This document shows, one piece after another, positions 21,101 through 34,940 of a DNA stretch of 64,000 nt. A model generated the notes under the pieces. It searched no databases and was not told the origin of the DNA. It saw only the letters and a program-made list of their open reading frames with translations. Position 1 is the first letter of the stretch. Every line of letters starts with the position of its first letter. Source of the DNA: Treponemataceae bacterium (GTDB taxonomy: Bacteria; Spirochaetota; Spirochaetia; Treponematales; Rectinemataceae); NCBI GenBank assembly GCA_963667725.2, contig CAXXHO010000004.1, forward strand, positions 1-64,000, read 5' to 3'. The position numbers were made by a program, and so were the translations under genes.

Positions 21101-21520
21101 GATGATGAGGGAAGGATTGGAGCCGGGGTAGGATGCCGCGACTTTCTTCTCAATTTGCGCCTTGAGCTGGCGAAAGGTGAGCCCGCGGGACGCGAAGGCA
21201 CCCAGGAAGCCCGCATTGATCGAGCCATCGCCCTCAACCACCAGGTTGATGGTGTCCAGCTGCGCCACCTTGAGGTAGACGAGCGTGTAGACATCGCCCG
21301 GCGTGGCGGGATAGTCCTCGGTGGCCATGGCCAGGAGGGTTTGGGCGCTCTGATCGGGGAGCGCGACGCTGTTCGAGCCTTGCTTGTTGGCCACGGTTCC
21401 GGAGAAGGATCCAGGCATCGTCTGGGCGGCGCCAATGGCTTGCGTAGCCTGGCCAAAGGCAGCGCCAGCCCCCGACAGGATTAGACAGGACGCAACTATG
21501 ATGAACAGGATTTTTCTCAT
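15173..21520 (-). CDS. Giant SLBB-repeat polysaccharide export protein (Wza/KpsD-like), 2115 aa
   Basis: Signal peptide, Poly_export-like N-terminus (PGDVY), seven ~270-aa repeats each with YDLF..GD..DP.L.PGD and GEV.RPG.Y, C-terminal hydrophobic helix. Confidence 0.85.
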   Translation of the reverse strand: MRKILFIIVASCLILSGAGAAFGQATQAIGAAQTMPGSFSGTVANKQGSNSVALPDQSAQTLLAMATEDYPATPGDVYTLVYLKVAQLDTINLVVEGDGSINAGFLGAFASRGLTFRQLKAQIEKKVAASYPGSNPSLIIASTGLFPVTVRGEVKQAGIATAWGLSRLSEVIAPFAGEYSSLREVSVVSRDGASATYDLFKARRSGDLSRDPYLKPGDVVELKKADRTVAIEGQVRRVGAYQLLAGEGLPELVAFYGDGALDGAKTDRALLTRKATADKPEAESLVVDLGGKTFPVLADGDILRVPSREEYLPIVSIEGAVAGAELGVKREALQGGAEAVETQQYRVIRIPYRQGAMLSEALRGIRGQIDPRADLKRAFIAKAGGSGQVEVDLEKLLYRFDSKDDIALAADDKVVIPYGSQYVFVTGEVAKSAWVGVTGLTRLSEAVKPLATRFSSLRDVAVKSSDGALARYDLFLAERQGDLTQDPYLRPGDQVEVGKADRIVALEGEVRKPGSYQLLAGEGVAELVAKYGDGAVEGAKTDLAVLTRKATAALPGGESLVFDLAGSPLPALGDGDRVRVPSREEYLPVVYVQGAVAGAELGVKKDAQAGNAGAVVAEQYRVVRLAYRQGQLLSQALRGIRDQIDPRADLKRAFIVRKGQAAQVAVDLEKLLYRYAPADDVALAADDTIVIPYGSMYAFVSGEVGKSAWVGITGLTRLSEAVKPLLTKYSSLRDVAVRSEDGSSAAYDLFKAEREGDLSQDPYLRPGDVVEVKKAGRIVSLEGEVSRPGTYQLLPGEGLSELMNYYSDKPLASAKTDLSVLTRRATAEKPESESLVFDLAGKDLPALADGDRVRVPSREEYLPVIYVEGAVEKAEATAAAGAAKEPVPEAKYAEKRLLWRKGLLLSQALAPLAGNFPGEADLHAAVVMRAADKSVVKVDLDRLLFAHDASLDLALESDDRVMLPFKTQAVFIAGEVVKSGFAPVSGSQRLSEALKPFLLPTSSTRNIVVTSAEGIAHTYDLFKAERFGERAQDPLLRPGDSVAVAKAARIVVLSGEVNRPGAYELLAGEGLSELLSIQGGGLLEFAKRDRILLTRRASDGKPQGESLVLDAGASAAPALLDGDAVKVPSKEEFLPVVYVEGAVQKAEAAAVGTAGAAPAEPKYGEKRVMWRKGLLVSQTMAILMAGIPDQADYRSAMVVRAADTSVVKIDLERLLFAHDASLDLALEADDRVVLPFKVQAVFITGEVAKSGFAPVSGAQRLSEALKPFLLPSSSTRSVVVTSAEGVPAAYDLFRAERFGESAQDPLLRPGDSVAVAKATRVVNLAGEVNRPGTYELLPGEGLSELLSVQGAGLREFAKRDRILVTRRASDGKPSGESLVVDAGASGAQAADAPALLDGDTVTVPSREEFLPVVYVEGAMASGGYGIQRVLWREGLLVSQALKPIAASLPAAADLRRAKLVRAKDGAEVQLDLEKLLFAFDPALDSVLGAGDRIILPYGSRDVFVSGEAARSGWVQADGTLRLSQAIKAFLLPTSSTRAVALRSTDGKETVYDLFKAERFGQIAQDPVVAPGDAITLRRAGRVVVLEGEVFRPGIYELLPTEDFSALISVQGAGLRDTAQADRVQITRKASDTKTAGGIALVDALSKDSKAELFDGDKVRVPSMDEYLPVVYIEGAVTGEYSVQRVAWRDGMRVADLIRPLRDRIPATADLKKAFITKSSADVPVEVDLEKILYSYDPAYDPALEPEDRLVIPLGSMYVFVTGEVQKSVWVAITGLTRLRDIVSANLTRWSSTRDVAVKSRNGVEQRYDLFRAERYGDLTQDPFLRPGDVVTVNRLERLVTIGGEVRRPGTYQLLAGEGMKDLVERYADGFTEKANPTRIQVVRLLSAASAVGEKLQFDYKVAPDFSLNQYDSITVPAWQDLLPVAWFEGAIGVGTGGATLESAKRVAYTFFPGETVSEAAQAMRKNFSEVSDLSASYISRKGKRIAVDLSKYLYDRETLYDVALEANDVIVVPFRQFFVTVSGAVKLAGRYPYVPDRTWEYYVGLAGGFDSDKNSGDKVTIYDVASKKVVSKGRVIMPEDNIVADTNSFMYSLLKVTSVLSTAISLIALVISLLP

Positions 21521-22776
21521 CGCGATACACCTTTACCGGAACTCAGGGCCTTGAACTTGGCCACGACTTCGGGATCATTTTTCATTTTTTCGAAGGACTC
21601 GACCACGAAGGCGAGGAGGATGGAAAGGAAGAAGCCCGCCATGGCGGCGACGACGCAGATCATGCCGCGGGAGGGGCCGGATTTCTTGTCGGGGACCTCG
21701 GCCATCTCCAGCACCTGGAAGACGGGATCCTGGCCGGCGGCGTTGAGCTTGGCCAGCTCGTACTGCTGGGTGAGGATCTTGAAAAGCTCGGTCTGCACGA
21801 GGAGGTCGCGCTGGATCTTGGCGTACTCGAAGGCGATGGCTGGCAGCTCCTTCTGGCTGGGCATGACCCGGCTGCCCGAACCCTTGCCCGTTTCGATCTC
21901 CTTGATCTTGGCGAGGAGCCCATCGCGCTCGCTCTTGAGCTGGAGCATCTGGGGGTCGGCCACGCGGGAGATCTTCTCGTAGTTGGAGATCTCCATTTCC
22001 TTAAGGATGAGCTCGCTGCGCAGCCGGGCGATGATGGTGATCTGCTCGGTGGCCAGGGCCTCGACCTGCGTGACGCCGTACTTGGTCTGGAATTCCTTGA
22101 CCTTGACCTCGAGCTCCTTGACCGAGTTGTCCACCTCGGCGAGCTTTTTCTCAAGAAGTTCTTTTTGCTGCAGGGTCTTGTCGCCGCTCAGGGTGGCGAA
22201 GCGGGCTTCCAGGATGCTCACGGTTTCATCGACGACTTTCTTGGCGAGGACGGGGTCGATATCTGTGAACGAGACGGTGAAGAGGTTCGTCTTAACATCC
22301 AGCTTGGCGCTGAGGTTTTTCTGTATGCCCTTGCGAACGTCGGAGACTAAGGGCTTTTTCTTCTGATTCTTCTTTCTCGTCGAAAAGCCATATTTGGCAT
22401 CGAGGGCATCGAGGGTGGTGTTGCTGGTGGCGAGCACTTCAGCGAGGGCGCCGTTTGTGTTGCCGCCCACGCCTACGCCCGCCATTCCCGCCAGGCTGGA
22501 GAGGCCGGAGGCCGCCAGCGCCGCGGAGACGCCACTCGAAGAGCTGCTCGTCTGGATGACCATCGTCGCCTTGGGCGTGTAGACGTTCGGGAGATAGCTT
22601 TTATCGGGGGGGAGGACCAAGGAGCCAATCGCGTAGAGTAAGACGCCAACCACGGCAAGGGCGGTGACGCCTATGATGATCCTTTTGCGTTTCCAAAGCA
22701 CCGCAGCCAGATCGAGCAGGCTGATCTCATCGTCGTCCTGGTTTTCGGGAATTTTCACACTCTCATTTTCGGCCAT
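21517..22776 (-). CDS. Wzz/Wzc-N polysaccharide co-polymerase (no kinase domain)
   Basis: DDEISLLDL, two TM helices, coiled coil, PDKKSGPSR motif. Confidence 0.88.
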   Translation of the reverse strand: MAENESVKIPENQDDDEISLLDLAAVLWKRKRIIIGVTALAVVGVLLYAIGSLVLPPDKSYLPNVYTPKATMVIQTSSSSSGVSAALAASGLSSLAGMAGVGVGGNTNGALAEVLATSNTTLDALDAKYGFSTRKKNQKKKPLVSDVRKGIQKNLSAKLDVKTNLFTVSFTDIDPVLAKKVVDETVSILEARFATLSGDKTLQQKELLEKKLAEVDNSVKELEVKVKEFQTKYGVTQVEALATEQITIIARLRSELILKEMEISNYEKISRVADPQMLQLKSERDGLLAKIKEIETGKGSGSRVMPSQKELPAIAFEYAKIQRDLLVQTELFKILTQQYELAKLNAAGQDPVFQVLEMAEVPDKKSGPSRGMICVVAAMAGFFLSILLAFVVESFEKMKNDPEVVAKFKALSSGKGVSR

Positions 22777-22818
22777 AGATCCTCACAAGATTTTTTTTGG
22801 TACTGCTTCTTAGCGATC

Positions 22819-22902
22819 AGTTGAAATACGGGGTCAGACCCCATTTTATTACTTCTAAGCTATCACAGTTGAAAATCGGGGTCAGACCCCGTTCTGTTAC
22901 TT
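22819..22902. repeat. Two tandem palindrome copies (48-bp period)
   Basis: ggggtcagacccc cores at 22830-22842 and 22878-22890, each preceded by agttgaaa. Confidence 0.9.
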
Positions 22903-22907
22903 CATAT

Positions 22908-23948
22908 TTATACGCCCGTGCAGCCTGATAAACAGGTGGGAACAGGCGATTTTTGGCTCTTTTTGGTTAAATATTCATCCAGACAGTCGCGCCAGGGATG
23001 CTGGAAGAGAACCATGGAATGGGCGAGCTTTTGCGCGGAGAGGTGCTGATGAAGGGGCCGAGCCGCCCTGCCGGGGAAAGCCGAGGCGGGCTGGGCAACG
23101 ATCTCGACGGGGCGATCGATCAGCTTGTGGTCCAGGGCGAGGCGGACCACTTCGGCGGCGAACTCGGGCAGGGCGGCACGGCCCCAGTCAGCGTAGTGAT
23201 AGAGGCCGCCGGGAGTCGGGTGATAGCTCGACGGAACGCCAGGGTAGACTTTGCCATCTTCCCCCACCACTTCAGGAGGGATGCGCTCGGCGAGGGTCAT
23301 GTCGAAAACAACGCGGGCGAGAGATTCGCCGAAGGTGGGCGAGACGATTTCGTCGTCGGGGACCTGGACGAGGCCCGAGCCGCCCTTGGCGCCGGCGCGA
23401 AGGATGGACTCGATTAGGGTGTCAGCCTCGGTGGGGGGCGCGAGGGACGCGAGGAGCGCAGGGGGTGCTGGGGGCGCGAGGGGCGCAGGGGGCGCGCCGT
23501 AGAGCCAGCCTGTCCGGAGCACGATAGCCCAGGGATCGGCCGAAAGGATGGCGCGCTCGGTTTCCAGCTGGACGCGGCCGAGGGCGCCAATGGGCGCGGC
23601 GGGAGACTTTTCCGTGTAGTCCCGCGAGGCGAGGGAGCCGGAAAATACGCAGGCAGAGCCGATTGCGATGAAGCGGGCATGCTGTTTCTTGGCGACGCGC
23701 AGCAGCGCAAGCGGCTGAGCGAAAGGCAACGCAAGCGGCTGAACAAGCTCGGGTTCGAGGGGCATGCCGCAATAGAATATCTGGGAGAAAGGACCTTCTC
23801 GAGCGGCAAAGGTATCGAGAACGACAGGATAAGCAGGATCGAAATCGGTGCGGCTTTCCGCCACCGAAAGGCCGGCGGACTGGAAGAAGACTGAGATGGC
23901 CCGGCCTAGGGGCGTATGGGCGCCGGCGATCCAGACGCGCTTGATCAT
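22908..23948 (-). CDS. RmlD-like sugar nucleotide-binding protein with degenerate catalytic motifs
   Basis: VLRTGWLYG, VPDDEIVSPT, GLYHY, RAARP are RmlD-like; GxxGxxG and YxxxK are missing. Confidence 0.75.
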   Translation of the reverse strand: MIKRVWIAGAHTPLGRAISVFFQSAGLSVAESRTDFDPAYPVVLDTFAAREGPFSQIFYCGMPLEPELVQPLALPFAQPLALLRVAKKQHARFIAIGSACVFSGSLASRDYTEKSPAAPIGALGRVQLETERAILSADPWAIVLRTGWLYGAPPAPLAPPAPPALLASLAPPTEADTLIESILRAGAKGGSGLVQVPDDEIVSPTFGESLARVVFDMTLAERIPPEVVGEDGKVYPGVPSSYHPTPGGLYHYADWGRAALPEFAAEVVRLALDHKLIDRPVEIVAQPASAFPGRAARPLHQHLSAQKLAHSMVLFQHPWRDCLDEYLTKKSQKSPVPTCLSGCTGV

Positions 23949-25120
23949 ACGGGGTCAGACCTTAGGTTAAAAATTGGGGTCAGACCCCGGTTTTTAACGG
24001 CGTAGTTTTTCTCTATCCAGGTGCGGTATTCGCCGGAACGGACGTGGGAGCACCATTCCTGATTATCCAGATACCAACGGACCGTGGCGCGAAGGCCGGT
24101 GTCGAAACTGTGGCGGCGGTCCCAGCCGAGCTCGGTCTTGAGCTTGGAGCAGTCGATGGCGTAGCGACGGTCGTGGCCGGGGCGATCCTTGACGTAGGTG
24201 ATGAGGGCTTCGAGCGAGGCTGGGGCGCGGCCGCTTTCCTCCGCGACAAGGGCGATGAGGCGGCGCAGGAGGGTGATGTTCTCCCACTCATTCTCGCCGC
24301 CGATGTTGTAGGTTTCGCCGGCGCGGCCGCGGTTCATGATCGACCAGACCGCCTCGTTGTGGTCCTCGACATAGACCCAGTCGCGAATATTTTTACCGTC
24401 GCCGTAAACGGGGAGCGGCTTGCCTTCCAGCATATTGAGGATCATCAAGGGGATGAGCTTTTCCGGGAACTGGTAGGGGCCGTAGTTATTGGAGCAGTTC
24501 GAGACGGTGACCGGGAGGCCATAGGTATGGAAATAGGCCTTGGCGAGGTGGTCGCTCGAGGCTTTGGACGCCGAATAAGGCGAGCGGGGATCGTAGGGTG
24601 TGGATTCGGTGAAGTAGCCCGAGTCGCCCAGAGAGCCGAAGACCTCGTCCGTGCTGACGTGGTGGAAGAGGACGTCGGCGCGGATGCCGCCGGCTGGATT
24701 AGCCCAGGCTTTGCGGGCGACATCGAGGAGGGTGTAGGTGCCCAGGACGTTGGTGCGGATGAAGGCTTCGGGGCCGAGAATCGAGCGGTCGACGTGGCTT
24801 TCAGCGGCGAAGTGGACGACGGTGTCGATGGCATAGTCGGCGAAGACTTTCTCGACGAGGGCACGATCGGTGATGTCGCCCTTGACGAAGGCGTAGCGAA
24901 GGGCGGGGGCAGAGGCGGCGCCAGGGACGGCAGAGGCTGCGCCGGGGCTGCCGAAGCGCGCGGCGATGTCGGCGAGGCTCTCGGGGTTGCCGGCATAGGT
25001 GAGGGCGTCGAGGTTGATGATGCGGCCGGAAAAATCGGACCGGGCGAAGAGCCAGTGGATGAAGTTCGAGCCGATGAAGCCCGAGCCGCCGGTGACTAGG
25101 ATGGAGGACAATTTTCTCAT
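23945..25120 (-). CDS. rmlB: dTDP-glucose 4,6-dehydratase
   Basis: VTGGSGFIGSN, DALTYAGN, HFAAESHVDRS, HVSTDEV, YSASK, DRPGHDRRYAID. Confidence 0.95.
   Translation of the reverse strand: MRKLSSILVTGGSGFIGSNFIHWLFARSDFSGRIINLDALTYAGNPESLADIAARFGSPGAASAVPGAASAPALRYAFVKGDITDRALVEKVFADYAIDTVVHFAAESHVDRSILGPEAFIRTNVLGTYTLLDVARKAWANPAGGIRADVLFHHVSTDEVFGSLGDSGYFTESTPYDPRSPYSASKASSDHLAKAYFHTYGLPVTVSNCSNNYGPYQFPEKLIPLMILNMLEGKPLPVYGDGKNIRDWVYVEDHNEAVWSIMNRGRAGETYNIGGENEWENITLLRRLIALVAEESGRAPASLEALITYVKDRPGHDRRYAIDCSKLKTELGWDRRHSFDTGLRATVRWYLDNQEWCSHVRSGEYRTWIEKNYAVKNRGLTPIFNLRSDPV
23951..23998. repeat. Partial plus full palindrome copy inside the rmlB 3' end
   Basis: ggggtcagacc (23951-23961), then gttaaaaatt-ggggtcagacccc-ggtttttaac (core 23976-23988). 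Confidence 0.92.
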
Positions 25121-25132
25121 TGGGATTCCTTG

Positions 25133-25171
25133 AAAGTTGAAATTTGGGGTCAGACCCCGATTTTTAACTTT
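25133..25171. repeat. Palindrome copy containing the RAYT stop codon
   Basis: aaagttgaaattt-ggggtcagacccc-gatttttaacttt; core 25146-25158. Confidence 0.95.
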
Positions 25172-25899
25172 ATATGCTTAGAGATGGCAGCTGGAGTGAG
25201 ACCAAGGTAGCGGGCGATCTGCGATTGGCTGTAGCCATCGCGAAGGGCGCTTTTAATGGCTTCATCACGAGCTGCGCGCTTTGCGCCATCGCGCTTACGC
25301 GCTAAATTCGCTACAAGAAAGTGTTGTGAGAGCGATTTGCACATGGCGGGCCTCAAGGCGGCAAGGGCTTCAGATCCGGCTTCAGCTCCGGCAACTTCGG
25401 CCTGCGGCAGAAACTTTGTACTGAAGAATTCCGTAAGTTGGGCGATTTCATCATGACTTAGCGCGGGGTCTTTCGTTGCCGAACTCGCCCAAGGGTATTC
25501 ACCGATCCGCGATGTCATGCCTTTTTTAATGGGATTACGCTCGATATATTTTATAAGAACATTAAGGTACTTTTCATCGTGCACAAACCAGGATTTGAAG
25601 CGGCCCTGCCATAGGGAACCGACGCGCTCATATTTACGGTTGAAATATTGCGTATAGTCCTGATCCAGGCGCTTGAGCGCGAACGAAAGATTCTCAAACC
25701 GCGTTTCCAACAACAAATGATAATGATTCGGCATGAGGCAATAAGCGACGACATCGAAATCGAAGGCCGCTTTCTGCTCATCGACCAAGCTTAAGAATCG
25801 CTGACGATCGGGATCATCCAGAAAGATTAACCTTTTTTCTACGCCCCTATTGATGACATGATAGAGGCCGATCCGATTCGTTCGCGGCAATCGCGACAT
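25150..25899 (-). CDS. RAYT-like HUH/Y1 tyrosine transposase with C-terminal HTH
   Basis: YHVINRG..IF, YCLMPNHYHL (HUH), LWQGRF, KYIERNP (catalytic Tyr), YPWAS; C-terminal GYSQSQIARYLGL HTH. Confidence 0.9.
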   Translation of the reverse strand: MSRLPRTNRIGLYHVINRGVEKRLIFLDDPDRQRFLSLVDEQKAAFDFDVVAYCLMPNHYHLLLETRFENLSFALKRLDQDYTQYFNRKYERVGSLWQGRFKSWFVHDEKYLNVLIKYIERNPIKKGMTSRIGEYPWASSATKDPALSHDEIAQLTEFFSTKFLPQAEVAGAEAGSEALAALRPAMCKSLSQHFLVANLARKRDGAKRAARDEAIKSALRDGYSQSQIARYLGLTPAAISKHIKLKIGV

Positions 25900-25964
25900 G
25901 ACCAGGCACCTCCGCGTACGCTATCTATGCGCGCGAAGGGTTGAGAAGCGATTCAAAGGCCAGG

Positions 25965-26010
25965 GCAAAAAGTTAAAATTTGGGGTCAGACCCCGATTGT
26001 TAACTTTTGC
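25965..26010. repeat. Palindrome copy containing the AbiEii stop codon
   Basis: gcaaaaagttaaaattt-ggggtcagacccc-gattgttaacttttgc; core 25982-25994. Confidence 0.95.
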
Positions 26011-26849
26011 AGGGCATCGGCGAGAATGGCTTGGAGGTAGAACCAATAATCGTTGGAGAGAGCGGTTTCGACAATCGGCCCCGAGGGGAGGAATCGACGC
26101 ATCTCGTTCCGGAAGTCTTCCCGGATCGAAGTACCAGCACTGATACGCTTGATACGCGACGTGAGCAAATCTAAAAACTCTGACGACGTTCTGTGATGAT
26201 CGACTATTTTGCGGGCAATAAAATCGGCATTCAGCGCAACACCCTGGCGCTCGAGCCAGGCGATGTCCCATAGATCGCGATTCTTGATTCTATTCGGCCT
26301 GAAGGCCAAAGCGATGAACTTATCAGCGAGGATTTCCTTCCGGCTCTGCGCGCGAAGTATAAGTCCCGCGGTTCCCATATCGACACCGTATTGATTGCGG
26401 AGCATCATAGGCCGCGCATCGTAACTGGGAATGGCACAAATATCGATATTGATGTGCTGAGCTTTCAGGTCTTTGCGCTCCGGCCGCGTCTGGATTTTGA
26501 CTTTCCAGGTATCGACATTTCCGGTTTCCCTGACCGGTTCCGATACATCGACCGGCAATCCGTACTTCTCCTGAAGGCCATTTACCAGCGCTTTGGCCAA
26601 TTCCGCGAGCTGGGAGGCATTGAAGTCGGCCCCGCCCGTAAGATCGAGGTCTTCACTGAGCCGCTCCGAACCGTAACACGCCCTGAGGCAGGTGCCTCCC
26701 ATAAAGGTCAGGTGGACCAGCAGCCCCGCATCGCTCATCAATCGAAGGATGTCGTGATGAAGCAGCTCTTTTTCGACCACGGGACGAAGCACCGCGAGTT
26801 CGGGACTATTGCGGATCGCTACGTCGACGAAGGCGTCAAAGAGACTCAT
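25986..26849 (-). CDS. abiEii: AbiEii nucleotidyltransferase toxin (type IV TA)
   Basis: EKELLH, FMGGTCLR.CYGSERLSEDLD, ADK..A, RDLWD; likely start ATG 26849. Confidence 0.9.
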   Translation of the reverse strand: MSLFDAFVDVAIRNSPELAVLRPVVEKELLHHDILRLMSDAGLLVHLTFMGGTCLRACYGSERLSEDLDLTGGADFNASQLAELAKALVNGLQEKYGLPVDVSEPVRETGNVDTWKVKIQTRPERKDLKAQHINIDICAIPSYDARPMMLRNQYGVDMGTAGLILRAQSRKEILADKFIALAFRPNRIKNRDLWDIAWLERQGVALNADFIARKIVDHHRTSSEFLDLLTSRIKRISAGTSIREDFRNEMRRFLPSGPIVETALSNDYWFYLQAILADALQKLTIGV

Positions 26850-27408
26850 TACGCGCCTTTTCACAATTTGGGGTCAGACCCCGAATTTTAACCAGATCCA
26901 TGGAACGTTTGGCCGAGCGCATATCGGCGAGCGCAAGGGCCGTGGACGCGCGCCAAAGCCGACATGGGCCGTCCCAGGTGAGTTCGGGAGCGAGCCGGTC
27001 GGGAGTCTTGTTCGTGTGGATGAATTCGATCGTGCCGAAACCCTCGCATTCGATGCGCCCGGATCGCCCGGAACTCATCAGCGTGATCCAGGAAAACGGT
27101 ATTTGAGAAATGATGCCGGCATCGGAGAGCACCGTTTCCAGGCTCAGATAATTGAAACACTCGGCGCGCAGGCGAGCCGCGGCATGGAAGAGCACTTTAT
27201 CACGCGGGTAATCCACCTTTTCATAGAGATAGAGATTCCTGCAAAGACGCCTCAGGGATCCTGCTTTCGTTGCCCTGGAAACGAGGGTCTTGAAGGTATC
27301 ATAGGACGACTCGGGCAGAAGCGCATGGAGATCCCGCAGCGAGAAAAGGTAGCGCTCGCGGCCGGCGAGCCGCGCAAGCGTCTCTGCAAAGATTCTGGCT
27401 GGCTGCAT
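26836..27408 (-). CDS. abiEi: AbiEi antitoxin (type IV TA)
   Basis: YLSLETVLSDAGIISQIP, GTIEFIH motifs; directly upstream of AbiEii. Confidence 0.85.
   Translation of the reverse strand: MQPARIFAETLARLAGRERYLFSLRDLHALLPESSYDTFKTLVSRATKAGSLRRLCRNLYLYEKVDYPRDKVLFHAAARLRAECFNYLSLETVLSDAGIISQIPFSWITLMSSGRSGRIECEGFGTIEFIHTNKTPDRLAPELTWDGPCRLWRASTALALADMRSAKRSMDLVKIRGLTPNCEKARNESL
26859..26892. repeat. Palindrome copy between antitoxin and toxin
   Basis: tttcacaattt-ggggtcagacccc-gaattttaac; core 26870-26882. Confidence 0.92.
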
Positions 27409-27440
27409 TTCCGCTCCAATCGACTGCCGATAGGCGGCAA

Positions 27441-27457
27441 GTTACACTAAGTGTAAC
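27441..27457. promoter_or_regulatory. Probable AbiE operator
   Basis: gttacact-a-agtgtaac inverted repeat upstream of abiEi. Confidence 0.5.
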
Positions 27458-27480
27458 CTAATGTCGATCAAAATGCAAGA

Positions 27481-27503
27481 AAGTTAAAAATTGGGGTCAG
27501 ACC
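27481..27503. repeat. Left half of palindrome copy split by IS110
   Basis: aagttaaaaattggggtcagacc; right half ccccgagttttaactt at 28894-28909. Confidence 0.9.
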
Positions 27504-27519
27504 TCTATGAGAATCCCCG

Positions 27520-28620
27520 TCAAGCGATTTTTTGAGAAAATAGAATTCTCTCAAATTTCCGTTTCTTGATCGAGAATGTTCCTTCCTGAAGGAACCAGTT
27601 CGGCTCCTTGTTCTTCAGGATGTAGAATATCTGCCTGATCGTCCGGCCTACTACGGCCGCACGAATCTTGTTCTTGGACTTGCCCACGGCATGCTTCGTG
27701 TAACGGAGCAGGTTCGGGTTTCCGTCGACCAGGTGGGCGACGCTCTGCAGGAGGATCTCGAAGGCCATTTTTCGCCCAGCTTTGTTGAGCCTGCCGATAT
27801 GGATCGTGTTGTTTGACGCATCGACGCGTGGAGCCGCCCGGAGATAGCTCACCAGGTTCTTGCTCGTATGGAAACGGTCGATAGTGATGATATCCGCCAT
27901 AATGCAGACGGCACCAAACACGCTGATTCCGCTGACCCCTATCAGCAGGCCTACTTGTTCACTGTAGCGGATGACTCCTATCGATTCGATCATCGAGCGC
28001 AACTGAGCCTTGAACGCGTCCAGTTCCTCATACCGATGCTTTTCCTGGCGGGCGATTATCCCAACTTCAGGTGGCAGTCGTGGGTGTTCCAGGTAGCGCT
28101 CCAAACGTTCAATGAGGAAGCCTTTGTCAACCTGCACGAGCCACTGGCGAAACAATGCGTAGAGATTGTTCTTGAGGGCTGTCATGTCGGCGTTCACGCG
28201 TTGGTATTGGCTAATGAGCATCCGTAGCCGTTGCGTGTCCTCGTCGGCAACCGTGACTTCAGGAAAGCCGTCGTTGGGATCGTTGTTCTCAAGATGCTGC
28301 TTCAGACAATCAGCCAGCTTCTTCGCATCGATGCTGTCCGTCTTCTTCGCTGTCATGAAGATCTGCGGCATGCTTAAAGGATTCACGACGAAGGCCCGAG
28401 CGCCTGCCGCAACAATCATTCGTGCCAGCGTATGCGACCCTGAGCCAGCCTCCACGCAGACGGCGCAACCCGGGTGCAGCGATCCGATGAAGTGTGTTTC
28501 CATCTGCTCCATCGGGTACTGGCTTTTCCTTCGCTCTACTTCCCCTTTCTCGCCGATAATGATCCGGTGCACCGTGACTTGCGTGGAATGGAGATCAACA
28601 CCGATAAATTCCTTGTCCAT
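27520..28620 (-). CDS. IS110-family DEDD recombinase/transposase
   Basis: IGVDLHS, CVEAG, KTDSIDA RuvC-like DEDD; GVSGIS..A..I.DI..IDRF and PRVDAS C-terminal domain. Confidence 0.92.
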   Translation of the reverse strand: MDKEFIGVDLHSTQVTVHRIIIGEKGEVERRKSQYPMEQMETHFIGSLHPGCAVCVEAGSGSHTLARMIVAAGARAFVVNPLSMPQIFMTAKKTDSIDAKKLADCLKQHLENNDPNDGFPEVTVADEDTQRLRMLISQYQRVNADMTALKNNLYALFRQWLVQVDKGFLIERLERYLEHPRLPPEVGIIARQEKHRYEELDAFKAQLRSMIESIGVIRYSEQVGLLIGVSGISVFGAVCIMADIITIDRFHTSKNLVSYLRAAPRVDASNNTIHIGRLNKAGRKMAFEILLQSVAHLVDGNPNLLRYTKHAVGKSKNKIRAAVVGRTIRQIFYILKNKEPNWFLQEGTFSIKKRKFERILFSQKIA

Positions 28621-28654
28621 CGATCCTCCTTCCCTAAAGGTGGTGGTTTCGACA

Positions 28655-28800
28655 GAAATGGATCGGGCGAATCCCCAGTCCTCTATTCGGGTTTCCGTGC
28701 TTAACAGCGCGGCCCCATTAGATCGTCCGGTGAAGGCTGGCTAATCCCCGAACGGGCTTACGTTCGCGCGTATCCCAGTCTGACCCCCAGCCTTCATCTT
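28655..28800 (-). ncRNA. Putative bridge/seek RNA in the IS non-coding end
   Basis: Stem tgaaggctgg/ccagccttca encloses GGGGUCAGAC and UUCGGGG (both strands of the target); AUAGAGG matches the donor junction. Confidence 0.65.
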
Positions 28801-28864
28801 TTATCCGTCGATTCCGATTTCCTTATGATACCTCCACCGGGCAATACCGCAAGTCAGCGAATCT

Positions 28865-29311
28865 TCACTGGCTTTCGATTGTTCTCATGATATCCCCGAG
28901 TTTTAACTTGGAAGGATCCATAAGGGAGAGGTCACGGAAATATTCGCGGTAGTAACCGCGGTCGCGAGCCAGGAGACGATCGGCATTCAAACGCGCGTGG
29001 GCAGCGATTAGAAAATCAGGCAGAATGCGTCGGGACTGGCCGCGGTTTTTCAGGTACGAAGCGTAGATCGAGCCTGCGAGCGTGGCGCTCTCAAGGGAGG
29101 AAGGCAGGAAGTCTAGGCCCACATCGCCCAGGAAGGCCGCGAGTTGCTGGTCGGAAGCCAACGCTGGCCTCAGTTCGGCGACAACCGATTCGCAGACAAC
29201 CAGCCTGCCCGAAGCTCGGGCTTCAGCTAACGCAGCTTCCGAATTCGCTGCGTGGCGCGGATCATCAGTGAGAATATCGAGAAGCACCGATGTGTCGACT
29301 GCGGTTGTCAT
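28865..29311 (-). CDS. vapC: VapC PIN-domain toxin (C-terminus altered by the IS)
   Basis: TAVDTSVLLD, VVAEL, LPDFLIAAHA, LLARDRGYY; start ATG 29311. Confidence 0.88.
   Translation of the reverse strand: MTTAVDTSVLLDILTDDPRHAANSEAALAEARASGRLVVCESVVAELRPALASDQQLAAFLGDVGLDFLPSSLESATLAGSIYASYLKNRGQSRRILPDFLIAAHARLNADRLLARDRGYYREYFRDLSLMDPSKLKLGDIMRTIESQ
28894..28909. repeat. Right half of the IS-split palindrome
   Basis: ccccgagttttaactt. Confidence 0.9.
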
Positions 29312-29532
29312 CCGCGAACCTCGTCCAAATACGCATCGACATCGGAGATGCCCCCAGGAAGATGCCCTTTGCCCCGCCATGTTCTCAGCGCGTCCTGAGG
29401 TTCTTTCTTGGTTCCGATGATTTTACCCTGTACCAACTCGAATTCGATGATCGTACCAGGACGTATACCCAGCTTGGTGCGGATAGTCTTGGGCAGGGTA
29501 ATTTGGCCTCGTTCAGATACGATGGTTTTCAT
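29308..29532 (-). CDS. AbrB/MazE-type antitoxin
   Basis: VSERGQITLPKTIRTKLGIRPG; ATGA overlap with vapC. Confidence 0.88.
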   Translation of the reverse strand: MKTIVSERGQITLPKTIRTKLGIRPGTIIEFELVQGKIIGTKKEPQDALRTWRGKGHLPGGISDVDAYLDEVRG

Positions 29533-29625
29533 ACTTTTAAGGTACGTATTCATACTTTAATTGTCAAGGCCAGCATCAGCACGCTGGCGCAGGGCACCGG
29601 GTACCGCGTGCCGCAGCCAGGGACT

Positions 29626-29655
29626 AAAAGTTAACAAATGGGGTCAGACCCCCTA
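29626..29655. repeat. Palindrome copy abutting the stop codon of the dehydratase
   Basis: aaaagttaacaaat-ggggtcagacccc-cta; core 29640-29652. Confidence 0.9.
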
Positions 29656-30843
29656 CATTTTGCTATCGAGGAATTTGCCGGTTTCTTTGTGGGCGAACTC
29701 GGGGATGGTGGCGTTGAAGAGATCGATGAGGTCGGCGCGCGTCCAGGTGCCACGAGCACGCATGGACGCGATCGAGGACTCGAAATGCTCAAGAGCAGCG
29801 GCGTTGTAGGTTGGAGCGTTCTTGATCACGCCGATCGATTCGAATCTTTGCATATCGAGCGTTTCGATATCGGTATAGAACTCTTCAAAGTCCTTTTCAC
29901 CCGTGGTGTCGCTGGCGAAGAAGTAGACCGGCCAGCGATGACATGCTTTAAGCTCAGAGACGCGGGCACGGGCTTCCTCTTCGGTGGCGCACTCGACGGG
30001 CTCGTAGCCGCGCGCCTTCAGGTAGCGCACCGCTATCTCGGAGAAGGTGATGAGATTGGCGCCAGCATCCAGCTTGGGGAAGAAGAGATCGCGGTTTTCC
30101 CCGAGGAGGGCGGACATGAGGCAGAGCTCGCCGGACTCCTTGGGCGTGACGAAATAGCGCCGGACATCGTTGGGCGCCGCGAGCGGCTGCTCCTTCTCCA
30201 TGCGCCGGTTGAAGCCATAGAGGAGACTGCCATCCGAAAAGGCCACGTTCGCGAAGCGCGCCGTGGACACCGACAGCTCGAGGCTCCGGCGCATCAGGAA
30301 ATACTCCATGATGCGCTTGGAGGCGCCCATCATGTTGACCGGGTTGGCTGCCTTGTCGGTGGAGACGCAGAAATACTTTTTCGCTCCCTTGGCGGCGGCC
30401 TGTCGCATGGTCCTGTCGGTGTTGAAGACATTGACATCCACCATGCGCATGAGCGTCCATGGATCCTTCTCCGAGCGCACATGCTTGAGGGCCGAGAGGT
30501 TGAGGACATAGTCGTAGCCCTGCCCCGAGGCCATGAAGGCGTCGAAGATATCGCTTCCCGCGTCGATGGCGAAGGTGGCGAACTCGCCAGCAGTGTAGCC
30601 AAGGGAGGAACGCAGATCACGCACCAGCTCGACCATGTTGTTCTCGCTGATATCCACCACATGGAGCAGCTTGGGATTGCGCCGGAATATTTCGCGCGTG
30701 ACCGCCTGGCCGATCGACCCCGCGCCGCCGATGACGAGGAAGCGTGATGCCGCTACTAGACGGGACAGATCGCTTTCGCGGGAATCGAGGTCGGCGGTGA
30801 AGAGTTCGGAATCCCGGCCAATATTAGTAAGTAATTTATCCAT
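29653..30843 (-). CDS. UDP-GlcNAc 4,6-dehydratase, soluble (LgaA-like)
   Basis: GGAGSIG, LSALKHVRSE, VSTDKAANP, GASK, ARFANVAFSDGS, GEK. Confidence 0.88.
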   Translation of the reverse strand: MDKLLTNIGRDSELFTADLDSRESDLSRLVAASRFLVIGGAGSIGQAVTREIFRRNPKLLHVVDISENNMVELVRDLRSSLGYTAGEFATFAIDAGSDIFDAFMASGQGYDYVLNLSALKHVRSEKDPWTLMRMVDVNVFNTDRTMRQAAAKGAKKYFCVSTDKAANPVNMMGASKRIMEYFLMRRSLELSVSTARFANVAFSDGSLLYGFNRRMEKEQPLAAPNDVRRYFVTPKESGELCLMSALLGENRDLFFPKLDAGANLITFSEIAVRYLKARGYEPVECATEEEARARVSELKACHRWPVYFFASDTTGEKDFEEFYTDIETLDMQRFESIGVIKNAPTYNAAALEHFESSIASMRARGTWTRADLIDLFNATIPEFAHKETGKFLDSKM

Positions 30844-30888
30844 TAATACTCCAAAACATTTCACAACTAAATAGTGAATTTTTAATAT

Positions 30889-31560
30889 TTAATCCTCATC
30901 AAGCTTCAACATTTCAGGAGGAGTGGGCATGTCTTTGAACCACCTCCGCCATAGAGTTGTGCGCGGGCAGACCAACGCCCACATAGTAAGAAAAATTACT
31001 TTAAAGTAATTTCCAATTGTATAATGATTGAACCACCAAAGCTCAAGTTCACCTTTGAAAGGAGCTATCACCATATCATGATTATATTCCCTATCCCCTC
31101 CAATTCTATCAAGAACACCCTCCTCATCCCGAAAAACTAGCGAAGCAATGCCTGTCAAGCCTGGTGTCATCCTCAATATTATTTCTCTTGTCTTCTCTGG
31201 ATAATACGCTAGATGCTGCACGACAATAGGCCGTGGCCCTACAACACTCATCTGGCCAATGAAAATATTAAGAAGTTGAGGTAATTCATTAATCTTTGTT
31301 TTTCGTAAAAAATGTCCCATTGGTAATACTCTAGGATCTCTTGATTGCGTTATAAAACCGCCTGGTAAATTTGGGCTATTTTTAAGCATCGTTGCAAATT
31401 TGTATACCTTAAATTTTACTCCGCCTTTTCCAACGCGAGTCTGCGAGTAAAAAATATAATGCTCTCCTGTAAGCTTTAGGCCTATCATGATTGGAATCAT
31501 AAAAGGAAATAAAATAACTATTGCAATACCAGAAAAAAGTATATCAAAAATACGTATCAT
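30889..31560 (-). CDS. Initiating sugar transferase (monotopic phosphoglycosyl transferase)
   Basis: RIFDI, FKVYKFATM, DPRV..G.FLRKTKINELPQL.NI..G.MS.VGPRP, PGLTG. Confidence 0.92.
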   Translation of the reverse strand: MIRIFDILFSGIAIVILFPFMIPIMIGLKLTGEHYIFYSQTRVGKGGVKFKVYKFATMLKNSPNLPGGFITQSRDPRVLPMGHFLRKTKINELPQLLNIFIGQMSVVGPRPIVVQHLAYYPEKTREIILRMTPGLTGIASLVFRDEEGVLDRIGGDREYNHDMVIAPFKGELELWWFNHYTIGNYFKVIFLTMWALVCPRTTLWRRWFKDMPTPPEMLKLDED

Positions 31561-33234
31561 AATAATTACTTCCTATTCTATAGTTTTTCATTATCCTTTG
31601 ATTCCTGATCAAAATAAAAGCTTTTCAATAATATTTGGCAACCAGATTTAATTTTTTCTTAATCAAGAACATTAATATATACTAATAAACCTTCAATTAT
31701 TTTCACCTTGTTCGGAATTTAGGTTTCAAATGATCTATTATTGAATATTTCTGATTTCGTCGATGAGATATCGAATTCGATATTTTCTTAAGTAGGGGTT
31801 CCTGAAGAACCCGCTTTTCAATCTTTCAGGCCGCACTTAACAGCCACATTGGTATAAAACTTAGCCGTTCTGCCATATCAATAATCGTATCAATAAGCGA
31901 CACAAAAAAGGCTTTCGCCTTTCTCCTCGCCACCACCATGAGGTTCATCACCAGGAATATCATCATAATTGACGTCTCGCTCGTCTCTTTGAGTTTTGTC
32001 CCAATTCTATCGAGCGTATAACGTCGCTTCCCTTCTCCAAACTTGCCCTCTACTGCAATTCTTGTACTCTCGTCTTCTCGCTCAATTCTTTTTTGCTCTC
32101 GTATTCTTTCTTTGTTCTTGCCGTTGTCCTTGAATGGCCTTCCCAATTTAGGCCCCGACAATCGTATCCCGTATTCTTGGCAGTACTGCAGATTCTCCCG
32201 CGTCCTATAGATCTTATCGGCGCATACAGCTTCTGGATATCTCCCATAGCGCTGCTTATAGCTTTCTATTTGCCCTTTCAGATCTTTGCATTCGTTGTAG
32301 GAATCCCACGAGAGCCTATAGACTTCCGCCATTCCATCAACAAGGCTTAAGGAAAGCTTCGCTCCAAACTCATACATCCCTCGGGCCTTCCCTCTCGCTA
32401 TAGGACGCACCCAAGGCTTGCTTATGCTTAAGATCCTTCCTTCTATCGACCAGGTGTCGCTGCGGTACAATTCTCTTTGCTGCCGTACCAATTCTCCGAT
32501 CACCCACAGATCCTGCCGCTGCTTTCTCGAAAGCAACGTTATTCCGACGTTGTCCTTGTATTCATTGATCAATCGCAGGTTCCGCTCAACATACTGGATC
32601 TGCGTTTTCAACGCCCTTCTGATTGTGTTCACTCTCGGCTTTCTATTCCGTATGAAGGTCAGAAACTCTTTTCTCGCCTTCTTCCTATACGTTCTTGGCT
32701 TCTCCCATCCTTCCGGCATTTCATTCTGGAGCGTATCAATGATACTTTCAGTCTTCCTTCTCGCTTCATCCAGCAAAGTCACATCATGGGGGAATCTCAT
32801 ATCTTCGGGAGCGCAGGTGGCATCAACGATCAATGTCCCTTTATTCTCCGGTTTCTTTGGCTCTCCGTCTCCAGAACTAGAACCGCTATTTTCGTCATCA
32901 TGGTGTTCATCGTCGGCTTTGCTTTTCTCGATGATCAACACATTCACTTCTTTCAGGATATCCGCCGACAGTCTCTTTCTGAAATGCACCATCATGCTCG
33001 GATCGAAAGGTATCTCATATTTGTAGCCTTCATATCCCAAGAAGTACTGGAGGTAGGGGCTCTCCCGAATATCCTCTACCAGCTCTTCATCGGAAAGATT
33101 CTTCTTTTCTTTTATTATGAGAGCGCCTAACGCGACTCTCACCGGTATCGCCGGCCTTCCATTATTGGCGACGAACAGCTTTGAATATTTCTCTTCGACA
33201 TCGTTCCAAGGTATCAGGCTTGCTAGGATTACCC

Positions 33235-34940
33235 CCTAATTTCCCGCAGAATTATAGCTAGGAATTGAATAAATCTATAAGATATATGCGAATAGACATT
33301 GACGTGACGGGAAAGCATAGCTACAATTACAGCTATGAAAGCAGGATTGCGCTAATGCCCTATCGCCTACATCATCTCAACAAGAAGACGGGCGTGACCT
33401 ATGTCTACGAATCGGTTTCCCGTTGGGACAAAGAAAAGCAGCAGGCACGCAGCACGCAAGTCTGCATAGGAAAGATTGATCCAGAAACTGGAACCTTCAT
33501 TCCATCAAAGCGCATAACGCAGGGAACTCTCCAAGAAGCAGAAGCTGCCGGCACGGCAACCGCGACGATCGTGGGGCCTTCGCTGATTCTCGATGAAATG
33601 TCCCGACGGCTGGGAATCGCAAGGCTTTTAAAAGTGGCATTCCCCGAGTGTTCAGCCCAAATTCTCACCATGGCCTATTACCTTGCCTGCCAAGGAGGTC
33701 CGTTAAGCCAAAGCGAATCCTGGACCAAGACCCATGAGCATCCCGCAATAAAACCGCTTACAAGCCAGAGGGTCAGCGAGATTCTTGGGTCCATATCGAC
33801 AGGAGCGAAACAGTCGTTTCTGTCGTCGTGGATGGATAAGATTCTCGAGGATGAGTATCTCTGCTATGATACCACGAGCATTTCATCCTACAGCGCATTC
33901 AACGAATACATCCGCTGGGGCCACAACCGCGACAGGGAGAAGCTTCCCCAGCTTAATTTGGCCATGCTGTTCGGACAGAAGAGCAAACTGCCTGCTTACT
34001 ACCACAGGGTTCCCGGCAATATTACTGACGTGCAGACCGTCCATAATCTTCTGGCGACCTTCAAGAAATTGGACATTAAAAACCTGCACTATGTACTCGA
34101 TAAAGGATTCTACAGCAAGAAGAACGTCGATGAAATGCTGGAACGGAAGGATCATTTCACGCTGTCGGTGCCCTTGAATAATCTATGGATTCAGCAGGCC
34201 ATTGATGAGATTTACGATACGATTCAGGGGCCCGAACGCTACAGGATGATCGACGATGAGGTGCTGTATGTACACTCGACGCTCCATCCTTGGGGAGAAG
34301 ATCGGCGACGCTGTTATCTGCACCTGTACTACAACGCAGAGATGAAAGCCCATGCGGTCGATCGGTTCAATCGGGAACTCATAGCCTACAAGGAAGAGCT
34401 GGAGTCGGGGAAACCGAAGGCCGAAAACAAGGAACAGTATGATGCCTTTTTCATCATCACAACGACGCCGAAGCGGGGGATGAAGGTTTCCTACAACAAC
34501 GAAGCGGTCGATCACTATATAAAACGCTACGCGGGGTTCCAGGCAATTTTCACGACACGCTTTAAGGATCCTGTTGAAGCGCTCCAAGTATATCGCGACA
34601 AGGATATCGTTGAGAAATGCTTCGATGACCTAAAGAACAGCCTTGATATGAAACGTCTTCGCATGCACACCATTGAAACCGTTGACGGCAGGCTCTTCGT
34701 GCAATTCATTGCCCTTATTTTCACGAGCGCCCTGCGAAGAGAAATGCGGAAGTCGAAGCTCATTGAAAAGTATACCGTTCGAGAACTGCTGCTCGAAATG
34801 GATCCACTTACCAAGATTCGGTATGCGGGAAAGTATGGTCAGATTCTCACTGAGATTACAAAGCCGCAGCGAGAGATCTTGGAGCTCTTAAGCATTGAGT
34901 CGCCGGTTGTCGCCTAGCTACAATTTGCCGGGAATTCAGG
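33235..34940 (+). mobile_element. IS1634-family element
   Basis: 28-bp imperfect IRs cctaatttcccgcagaattatagctagg / cctagctacaatttgccgggaattcagg; 6-bp TSD TTACCC. Confidence 0.9.
33355..34917 (+). CDS. IS1634 transposase
   Basis: YDTTSISSY, GNITD, LDKGFYS, YRDKDIVEKCFDDLK motifs. Confidence 0.9.
   Translation: MPYRLHHLNKKTGVTYVYESVSRWDKEKQQARSTQVCIGKIDPETGTFIPSKRITQGTLQEAEAAGTATATIVGPSLILDEMSRRLGIARLLKVAFPECSAQILTMAYYLACQGGPLSQSESWTKTHEHPAIKPLTSQRVSEILGSISTGAKQSFLSSWMDKILEDEYLCYDTTSISSYSAFNEYIRWGHNRDREKLPQLNLAMLFGQKSKLPAYYHRVPGNITDVQTVHNLLATFKKLDIKNLHYVLDKGFYSKKNVDEMLERKDHFTLSVPLNNLWIQQAIDEIYDTIQGPERYRMIDDEVLYVHSTLHPWGEDRRRCYLHLYYNAEMKAHAVDRFNRELIAYKEELESGKPKAENKEQYDAFFIITTTPKRGMKVSYNNEAVDHYIKRYAGFQAIFTTRFKDPVEALQVYRDKDIVEKCFDDLKNSLDMKRLRMHTIETVDGRLFVQFIALIFTSALRREMRKSKLIEKYTVRELLLEMDPLTKIRYAGKYGQILTEITKPQREILELLSIESPVVA

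Follow-up and report, generated by a model that had tools for sequence, protein, structure and literature searches.

Why should unrelated genes of one polysaccharide locus take their last codons and their stop codon from copies of the same short palindrome? The question is raised by the 64,000 nt analysed here (the window), part of contig CAXXHO010000004.1 of assembly GCA_963667725.2 from a Treponemataceae bacterium, in which a palindromic site recurs at the 3' ends of genes for a RAYT-type HUH nuclease, toxin-antitoxin (TA) proteins and sugar biosynthesis. The site has a defined anatomy, is linked to the TIRYT family of nucleases, keeps a register with gene 3' ends, replaces native protein tails, bounds modules that are exchanged and is still being eroded. 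We lean, with moderate confidence, towards the reading that it derives from a TIRtron, would have been placed and recombined by the HUH nuclease of that element, and survives only where it falls in dispensable last codons. Below, G denotes genomes, L loci and X sequencing runs or strains; the window's contig is C4 of bin G000, with C5 and C6 further contigs of the same bin. Genes were called with a simple codon-score caller, with which single gene ends could be wrong.

The features of the window that bear on the argument are the following.
22817..22905, minus strand: two tandem sites after an rmlD-like gene, cores 22878-22890 and 22830-22842
23945..25120, minus strand: rmlB-like dTDP-glucose dehydratase; site-free alleles end in IEKNYAAR
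23951..23998, minus strand: site after rmlB, core 23976-23988, with a partial second core 23951-23963
25133..25171, minus strand: full two-armed site after RAYT, core 25146-25158, TGA 25152-25150
25150..25899, minus strand: TIRYT/RAYT gene, 249 aa, HUH-Y1 nuclease with a C-terminal helix-turn-helix (HTH); last 6 codons and stop from the site
25969..26007, minus strand: full two-armed site after AbiEii, core 25982-25994, which doubles as the upstream boundary of the RAYT unit
25986..26849, minus strand: AbiEii nucleotidyltransferase toxin, 287 aa (Pfam PF08843), ending in KLTIGV in the site
26836..27408, minus strand: AbiEi antitoxin, 190 aa (Pfam AbiEi_4, slightly below cut-off)
26865..26892, minus strand: site with both arms clipped within the AbiEi 3' end, core 26870-26882
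27480..27501, minus strand: right half of the vapC site (TCTGACCCC and right arm), left by the IS110 insertion
27502..28893, minus strand: IS110-family element within the core, transposase 27520-28620 (Pfam PF01548, PF02371)
28894..28909, minus strand: left half of the vapC site (arm and GGGG)
28865..29553, minus strand: vapB (MazE/AbrB-type, 29308-29553) and vapC (PIN, from 29311) (Pfam PF04014, PF01850)
29627..29652, minus strand: site after the dehydratase, left arm missing in the window, core 29640-29652
29653..30843, minus strand: Polysacc_synt_2 (Pfam) dehydratase, whose stop, at the native position, adjoins the site

The site, of about 39 bp, is built as box-N5-GGGGTCTGACCCC-N5-box, that is, AAAGTTAA, a variable 5-nt spacer, GGGGTC-T-GACCCC, a second spacer and TTAACTTT. 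The 13-bp core is near-palindromic with one asymmetric base (the central T/A), and a TGA stands at its centre on the T-centred strand only. In the G000 type the spacer is 5 nt long in 45 of 48 arms. The window holds 19 core matches (up to 2 mismatches, both strands) against 0.82 expected, a count reached by 0 of 100 shuffles. In the bin, 35 cores at up to 1 mismatch cluster in the sugar and accessory loci of C4, C5 and C6; exact cores number 28 in 4.2 Mb, and the sites are mostly single. The exact core is present in 18 of the 61 genomes searched, where a reversed-pattern control gave at most 2 matches per genome, and Rectinema belongs to the host family. Ahead of counting, 63 of 182 exact cores that lacked an arm box were discarded as probable chance, and the site listings are samples (20 regions each in G012 and G031, 12 in G014, none in G003). 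Among the matches listed from a contig scan, the figures of which are minimum values (80 of 127 stretches were examined as DNA), the same core is found with different arms in actinobacterial, clostridial and proteobacterial bins. Spread by phages or viruses was indicated at 2 loci only, and the 26 plasmid records are all partial and below 60% identity.

A DNA hairpin is predicted at the site after RAYT (z -3.7) and at that after AbiEii (z -4.0). Covariation of the arms was rejected as proof of this structure, being weak for the G000 type (24 pairs, p about 0.07), modest for G012 and G031 (35 pairs, p 0.014) and absent from the 8 pairs of Rectinema; an Rfam search of 22500-31700 returned no match. 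Several variants of the site were seen. The 41-53 sites of G012 and G031 (L176-L215) are dispersed, with AAGTCAA arms and 3- or 5-nt spacers, and several genes there are read through on the A strand to end in GSDPxx at the far arm. Tandem runs of the core with a period of about 21 bp occur in G003 (C17, C45, C49), and a core with different flanks in G014 (C29). Dispersed copies at gene ends in L018-L088 (Ilumatobacteraceae, Acidimicrobiales) combine the same core with GTTAC boxes and spacers of 4 nt.

The sequence-only reading had pointed out that three unrelated proteins end alike in this palindrome, and the endings are indeed present. On the minus strand RAYT ends in KLKIGV and AbiEii in KLTIGV, each with the central TGA of GGGGTCTGACCCC as its stop. 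VapC ends in KLKLGV when the IS110 element is taken out at the joint 27501|28894; the resulting 140-aa protein has 3 mismatches to the database protein P0241, which has the same ending. In the near-identical strains X1 and X3 the element is absent at exactly this joint (a 1392-nt skip with 2 shared letters), the strain comparison being confined to short-read runs with a share of at least 0.2. AbiEi, as had also been stated, reads through its site as VKIRGLTPN. The corresponding read-through of rmlB (VKNRGLTPIFN) is present in the window assembly but not in the short-read contigs of three runs, which have 7 extra bases behind 23997, so that rmlB there stops at the TAA of the arm (YAARS, translated by hand); the X22 contig with these bases shows 0 other differences over 1418 nt. 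Similarly, the TAG of the dehydratase adjoins the core at 29653 in the window but not in X1 and X3, which keep 10 more bases and an intact left arm; the adjoining TAG is therefore probably an eroded state. The short deletions of the window assembly relative to short-read contigs lie exactly at hairpin arms (23997; 29652-29653), and that at the rmlB arm may be an assembly slip or a minor variant.

A comparison of homologue C-termini, proposed beforehand as the test of these endings, showed that native ends are replaced by site-coded tails. Homologues without the palindrome end in other residues, so the match of the tags is not a coincidence, an explanation which the shuffle count of the cores rejects as well. 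GV endings, with the queries included, were found in 11 of 120 homologue matches for RAYT, 10 of 120 for AbiEii and 7 of 120 for VapC, in close homologues only; the rest are native, and distant AbiEii homologues have other tails, such as PRFKM. Allele pairs display the replacement directly: PPDALKL versus PPAELKIGV in the sugar transferase, SLEKNLLLAIQE versus SLKSHLGV in DegT, DLVAQGENR versus DLVKIRGLTPNCEKARNESL in AbiEi, and NYAAR versus site-linked ends in rmlB. The new tail frequently mimics the old residues. Site-free homologues of the dehydratase stop at the same KM/RM position. Eroded junctions carry shorter GV tails (PSNGV, PSAGV, ADAQHGV, SKRAGV), X3 has a 9-nt in-frame loss at the RAYT junction, and one 48-bp unit of the tandem sites after the rmlD-like gene is absent in X1 and X3.

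It had further been proposed that exchange at the core would always restore a stop codon. Exchange between sites of the same orientation would keep the central TGA, but this codon closes only a minority of the genes that reach a site. The census covered 162 arm-bearing sites with 97 called ends at -30..+60 of the centre, from 67 families; deduplication by family, orientation and class left 74 ends, drawn from related genomes that are not independent. Thirteen of these, from 13 unrelated families, end on the core TGA, 12 on the arm TAA, 22 on other arm stops, 11 read through and 16 keep a native upstream stop. Genes approach on the T strand in 38 cases and on the A strand, where the centre offers no stop, in 36. 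Strand-fixed restoration of the stop is rejected on these grounds, since genes arrive from both sides. The AbiEii homologues alone end in three frames of the site (tails LTIGV, RGLTPIFNF, KTGSGPIY and IRGQTP), and the right arm has been joined into the middle of DegT at two depths, leaving DegT fragments.

The bias towards gene 3' ends is strong. A stop lies within 25 nt of 66 of 119 arm-bearing sites, against 28.1 expected from non-coding positions, and a start is nearby in 8 of 119, against 27.7. Half of the gene ends in Ilumatobacteraceae-type loci (18 of 36; 14 TGA, 3 TAG, 1 TAA; 87 arms examined) have their stop exactly 2 nt ahead of the box. In three lineages the stop and the core are about 9-11 nt apart. 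Convergent genes end at both arms of a site. The keeping of a stop looks like a filter on surviving junctions, together with an old habit of TIRYT right ends, and not like a design rule.

The habit is one of the family to which the nuclease is assigned. According to text passages of the two papers concerned, the TIRtrons and their TIRYT nucleases (Di Nocera et al. 2013, PMC3733652) correspond to subclass 2.1 of TnpA-Y1 (Quentin et al. 2018, PMC6006769), and their flanking repeats share GGGGWSAS. The RAYT protein of the window matches Y1_Tnp (PF01797, E 4e-13) and has the HuH motif and single tyrosine of the Y1 catalytic core, with H59 and H61 (NHYH) and Y118 invariant in 32 aligned homologues. 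Its best Foldseek match is 4er8, E. coli RAYT. The C-terminal HTH extension of the subclass is also present: HTH_38 and Sigma70_r4_2 match weakly, under cut-off, at 213-244, and the AlphaFold2 model (pLDDT 82.7) places three helices at 206-247, the last of which (236-247) enters the site-coded KLKI. The gene is flanked by GGGGWSAS inverted repeats, the downstream end being GGGGTCAG on the opposite strand; the upstream end, GGGGTCTG, has one mismatch and can be read on the gene strand because the site is palindromic. On length, HTH and motif the gene fits TIRYT, or TnpA-Y1 subclass 2.1.

Relatives were collected as 79 metagenome TIRYT loci, 69 of them with complete 3' ends. TGACCC lies at -25..+60 of the stop in 52 of the 69, compared with 2 of 580 in-gene control windows, and is the stop itself in 26, mostly distant loci; stop donation is therefore an old habit of the family's right end. 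GGGTCA is found within 200 nt upstream in 42 of 54 loci. In 8 distant and own ends the box stands 11 nt before TGACCC, as in the window site, and the end is one-sided in the majority of the distant loci (box, 4, 9 or 11 nt, TGACCCC). An actinobacterial RAYT is likewise flanked by two sites with the same core (L021, L022, L025, L026). Distant RAYT-like genes of the host family mostly have no site at their ends: among 13 loci compared, L158 alone has one at the stop, and L338 has two full sites at a distance. Since the window site is palindromic, one copy would both close the upstream unit and open the downstream one, and RAYT is flanked by direct and inverted copies because each end is a palindrome common to adjacent units.

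The genes between the sites differ from allele to allele. Site-free alleles (G002, G005, C6) have a plain operon of dehydratase then sugar transferase. Elsewhere, accessory units stand between sites: VapBC, AbiE, Phd-PIN, MazEF, AbiH, HTH-IrrE and AAA_14 ATPases. C5 was treated as a related locus and not as a true paralogue, because the bin is 6.3% contaminated and C5-type contigs occur at about half depth in run X22. The dehydratase site is followed by vapBC in the window, C5 and L236, by AbiE in G020 and by MazEF in G025; after AbiEii comes RAYT in the window and the sugar transferase in C5, L236, G020 and G025. The site within the AbiEi 3' end is shared by the window and G025 and is not in the C5, L236 and G020 alleles. 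C5 and L236 are 98% identical until 20 nt past one site, where an ATPase in the one faces AbiH in the other, and the vapBC unit occurs at two different positions among the loci. X1, which shows 0-15 differences per piece across RAYT to vapBC, has the dehydratase site twice, with some 2 kb of additional DNA separating the copies and a dehydratase of 91% identity upstream. Modules are thus gained, lost and exchanged, as in integrons, at sites of the same orientation: the orientation is uniform in C5 (11 of 11) and L236 (11 of 11) and nearly so in L315 of G080 (12 of 13), including sites whose TGA serves no gene, and neighbouring pairs agree in 45 of 59 cases. Joints in X22 with short sides (for example 26892-29666) were considered as rearrangements and ruled out, being the C5-type locus mapping through the repeat.

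The same few bases, GCCC, follow the right arm at window 25969, C5 700524 and 695662, L236 2625 and L140 2094, at sites that open different modules (RAYT, vapB, AbiH and another gene), a hint that a single donor end may serve as the template for new sites. A pRiA4b ORF-3-like gene (446 aa) occurs twice on C4, at 66062-67701 and 72134-73743 (86% identity), each copy lying between a pair of sites in opposite orientation and ending on the arm TAA; the neighbouring genes of the two copies differ. Another dispersed repeat, some 165 bp long and with inverted ends of the GACAGGA type (60 matches to the motif in the bin at up to 1 mismatch), lies at C4 65225-90770, at about 743-754 kb of C5, in C6, and beside sites in L138, L150 and L234. 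Found among AAA_14/DUF4143 ATPase and PDDEXK_3 genes, it often adjoins the palindrome and also supplies stop codons (proteins ending in RTG or IKTG).

In the mechanism we favour, the palindrome would be a TIRYT end sequence made two-sided, so that one copy comprises the right end of the upstream unit (box-N11-TGACCCC) and the left end of the downstream unit, with the 13-bp core in common. TIRYT would bind the boxes or the hairpin and nick one strand at or near the central C-T. The nicked strand would then be joined to a second site of that strand, so that the intervening module is excised or inserted, or else to a new target that shares a few bases with the arm. For E. coli TnpA-REP, cleavage at CT and recombination of substrates made of repetitive extragenic palindromes (REP) are documented, and a capture of flanking genes is put forward by its authors in text passages of PMC3333891. 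As the packed polysaccharide operon has almost no intergenic space, a new junction would persist only if it fell on a stop codon or on final codons that the protein can spare. Core and arm of the site each offer a stop, so most survivors would end in the site. Small deletions would erode the junction afterwards. Stop donation would then be a by-product kept by selection and not a restoring mechanism.

An IS110-family element is inserted in the vapC site. Its upstream non-coding loop (28787-28746, minus) contains GGGGTCAGAC and TCGGGG, which match both strands of the palindrome core, and the RNA of the non-coding region (28796-28732, minus) is predicted to fold into a hairpin with an internal loop that carries both, apparently in the manner of a seek/bridge RNA. 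Sites of this kind host the element in G000, G025 (L352) and G002 (L349), and a copy in G021 (L351) has an altered loop and a target matching the alteration. Among 69 family genomes it was detected in 8, several with short or weak matches only, and not in G005, G020, G080, G012 or G031. Text passages of PMC11187229 and the abstract of PMC12288879 describe REPs as targets of IS110-family elements, like the window site.

The most serious competitor of the TIRtron reading, which we regard as possible if rather doubtful, is that the site is a miniature repeat of REP type, maintained at 3' ends by a role in RNA, as terminator, attenuator or mRNA stabiliser, while modules change passively through slippage or host homologous recombination and RAYT at most spreads the repeat. 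A GC hairpin with T-rich sequence behind it on either strand would suit such a role, as would the convergent genes ending at both arms, the actinobacterial stops 2 nt before the box and the similar stop-to-core distance in three lineages. In addition, 6 of the 13 terminator-like hits in the region are the palindromic sites themselves, so that selection at the level of RNA may set the position of the site; E. coli REP325 is, in text passages of 10.64898/2026.03.23.713779, a stabiliser and terminator in a 3' untranslated region. Many sites are dispersed and not arrayed in G012, G031, G080 and the Ilumatobacteraceae. Several observations weigh in the same direction, against placement and recombination by the nuclease: no Y1 gene was found in G005, G012 and G031 despite 16-53 exact cores (assemblies 88-94% complete, fragmented), and G080, with many sites, has only distant RAYT-like genes without a site at their ends. 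Orientation is mixed in C4b, L177 (G031) and L318 (G080); no circle joint was seen among the contig joints listed, the raw-read run X24 being without the organism; and, with arm spacers that differ between orthologous sites, the crossover point cannot be assigned to the core. Most order differences among the window, C5 and G020 can be explained by enzyme-free deletion between 39-bp direct repeats. Deletion alone fails, however, for the replacement of ATPase by AbiH, the two positions of vapBC and the extra 2 kb of X1, and such replacements and gains are harder to explain in this way. A hairpin overlapping the stop inside an operon would presumably make a poor terminator, and complementarity between the left and right spacers of a site is weak (in the G000 type, see above).

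A dedicated cassette system, with a crossover core built to give every cassette its stop, appears improbable. The 13 unrelated families ending on the central TGA, a frame often retained through erosion and the uniform orientation in operon arrays speak for it; a related point is that in T orientation the GV frame is used by 13 families, the arm TAA by 7 and read-through by 3, which a neutral filter on junctions does not plainly predict and which thus counts against our own account. As a rule the proposal is contradicted by the 61 of 74 ends without the central TGA, 36 of them on the strand that has none, by the three frames of AbiEii and by sites that cut DegT in mid-gene. It is similarly unlikely that another recombinase acts on the site, whether a host tyrosine recombinase, as in dif modules with the central T/A giving direction, or the core-targeting IS110. 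The inverted pair of boxes flanking a core that has one asymmetric base, direct orientation in the arrays, 10 tyrosine recombinases encoded in the bin and the IS110 loop with its insertions would agree with this. Contig C4 has no tyrosine recombinase, though, the motif tracks TIRYT gene ends across phyla, the IS110 element was detected in few family genomes, and the dif spacer is unlike a 13-bp near-palindromic core.

By every feature testable here the locus is a TIRtron, having an HUH-Y1 gene with a C-terminal HTH flanked by GGGGWSAS repeats. It differs in that its ends are near-perfect palindromes common to adjacent units, which bound as many as 12 modules in a run and take the place of native C-termini in numerous host and cargo genes. 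A likening to integron attC ends, made in the sequence-only reading, did not hold, the known family being the TIRtron. Integrons resemble the locus in their arrays of short, often TA or defence modules between hairpin sites of the same orientation; the window array, in contrast, includes core biosynthetic genes, its modules may be inverted or comprise several genes, and its junctions cut coding sequence at variable depth. The attC site has the architecture RYYYAAC...GTTRRRY with extrahelical bases. Compared with that consensus, the window site (GTTAA...TTAAC) has the opposite polarity and a fixed 13-bp core, and no PF00589 match lies on C4 (10 lie elsewhere in the bin), so that no linked IntI was found. 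The pdif/dif modules of XerCD are TA or accessory modules bounded by short two-armed sites, as here. Their sites alternate in orientation while the window-type sites are mostly direct, and the window site, which is linked to an HUH gene, forms a 39-bp palindrome around a symmetric core of 13 bp. A recombination site that gives a stop has an integron precedent in text passages of PMC8876359, where the TAG of the GTTRRRY core ends ORF-11.

With REPs, bacterial interspersed mosaic elements (BIMEs) and TnpA-REP (RAYT; PDB 4ER8), the locus shares the fold of the enzyme and a hairpin-forming repeat at gene 3' ends. The arm consensus has no GTAG, the copies (28 exact cores in 4.2 Mb) number tens and not hundreds and are mostly single sites instead of doublets, so the locus is not a classical REP/REPIN-RAYT system; the enzyme also has an extra HTH domain, and modules are swapped between sites. 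Some of what we describe is already in print, as far as the text passages of PMC3733652 go: GTAG REP termini frequently give the TAG stop of flanking open reading frames (ORFs), and repeats overlap the transposase 3' end, with self-complementary terminal inverted repeats (TIRs) and dispersed TIR families. Neither cargo exchange nor C-terminal replacement is described for TIRs in the text passages of PMC3733652 and PMC6006769, on which their figures and supplements may bear. A literature search, with most subscription journals outside its coverage, returned no description of exchangeable defence modules bounded by shared palindromic TIR sites, nor any paper on the exchange of cargo at TIR sites.

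In text passages of PMC6006769, subclass 2.1 is present in 14.9% of surveyed strains, with no REP-like partner found by the authors of the survey. We suggest, tentatively and with some doubt, that nucleases of this subclass with a palindromic shared end are single-strand cassette recombinases that build integron-like arrays of TA and anti-phage modules in surface-polysaccharide operons, in register with stop codons, and rewrite neighbouring C-termini as they do so. If true, an HUH nuclease, and not a tyrosine or serine recombinase, would drive a cassette system, and this large subclass would have its first function. The direct prediction is site-to-site excision and integration of defence modules, for which the locus offers a defined candidate substrate (box, spacer, core, one asymmetric base) and natural before/after alleles. 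Were the enzyme inactive on the site, the locus would be an unusually clean case of REP-like stop-codon donation. Mobile-element ends rewrite C-termini in many unrelated families here, including the last helix of the transposase itself.

Further ORFs lie in two other regions of the window. One of 2115 aa, internally repetitive with units of about 275 aa, is at 15173-21520 (minus) and presumably resembles the SLBB-repeat polysaccharide export proteins. Upstream of the sugar transferase, two more transposase-like ORFs are found at 31826-33142 and 33265-34917 (minus), the first of which has an 88-90% identical copy beside the C5 array.

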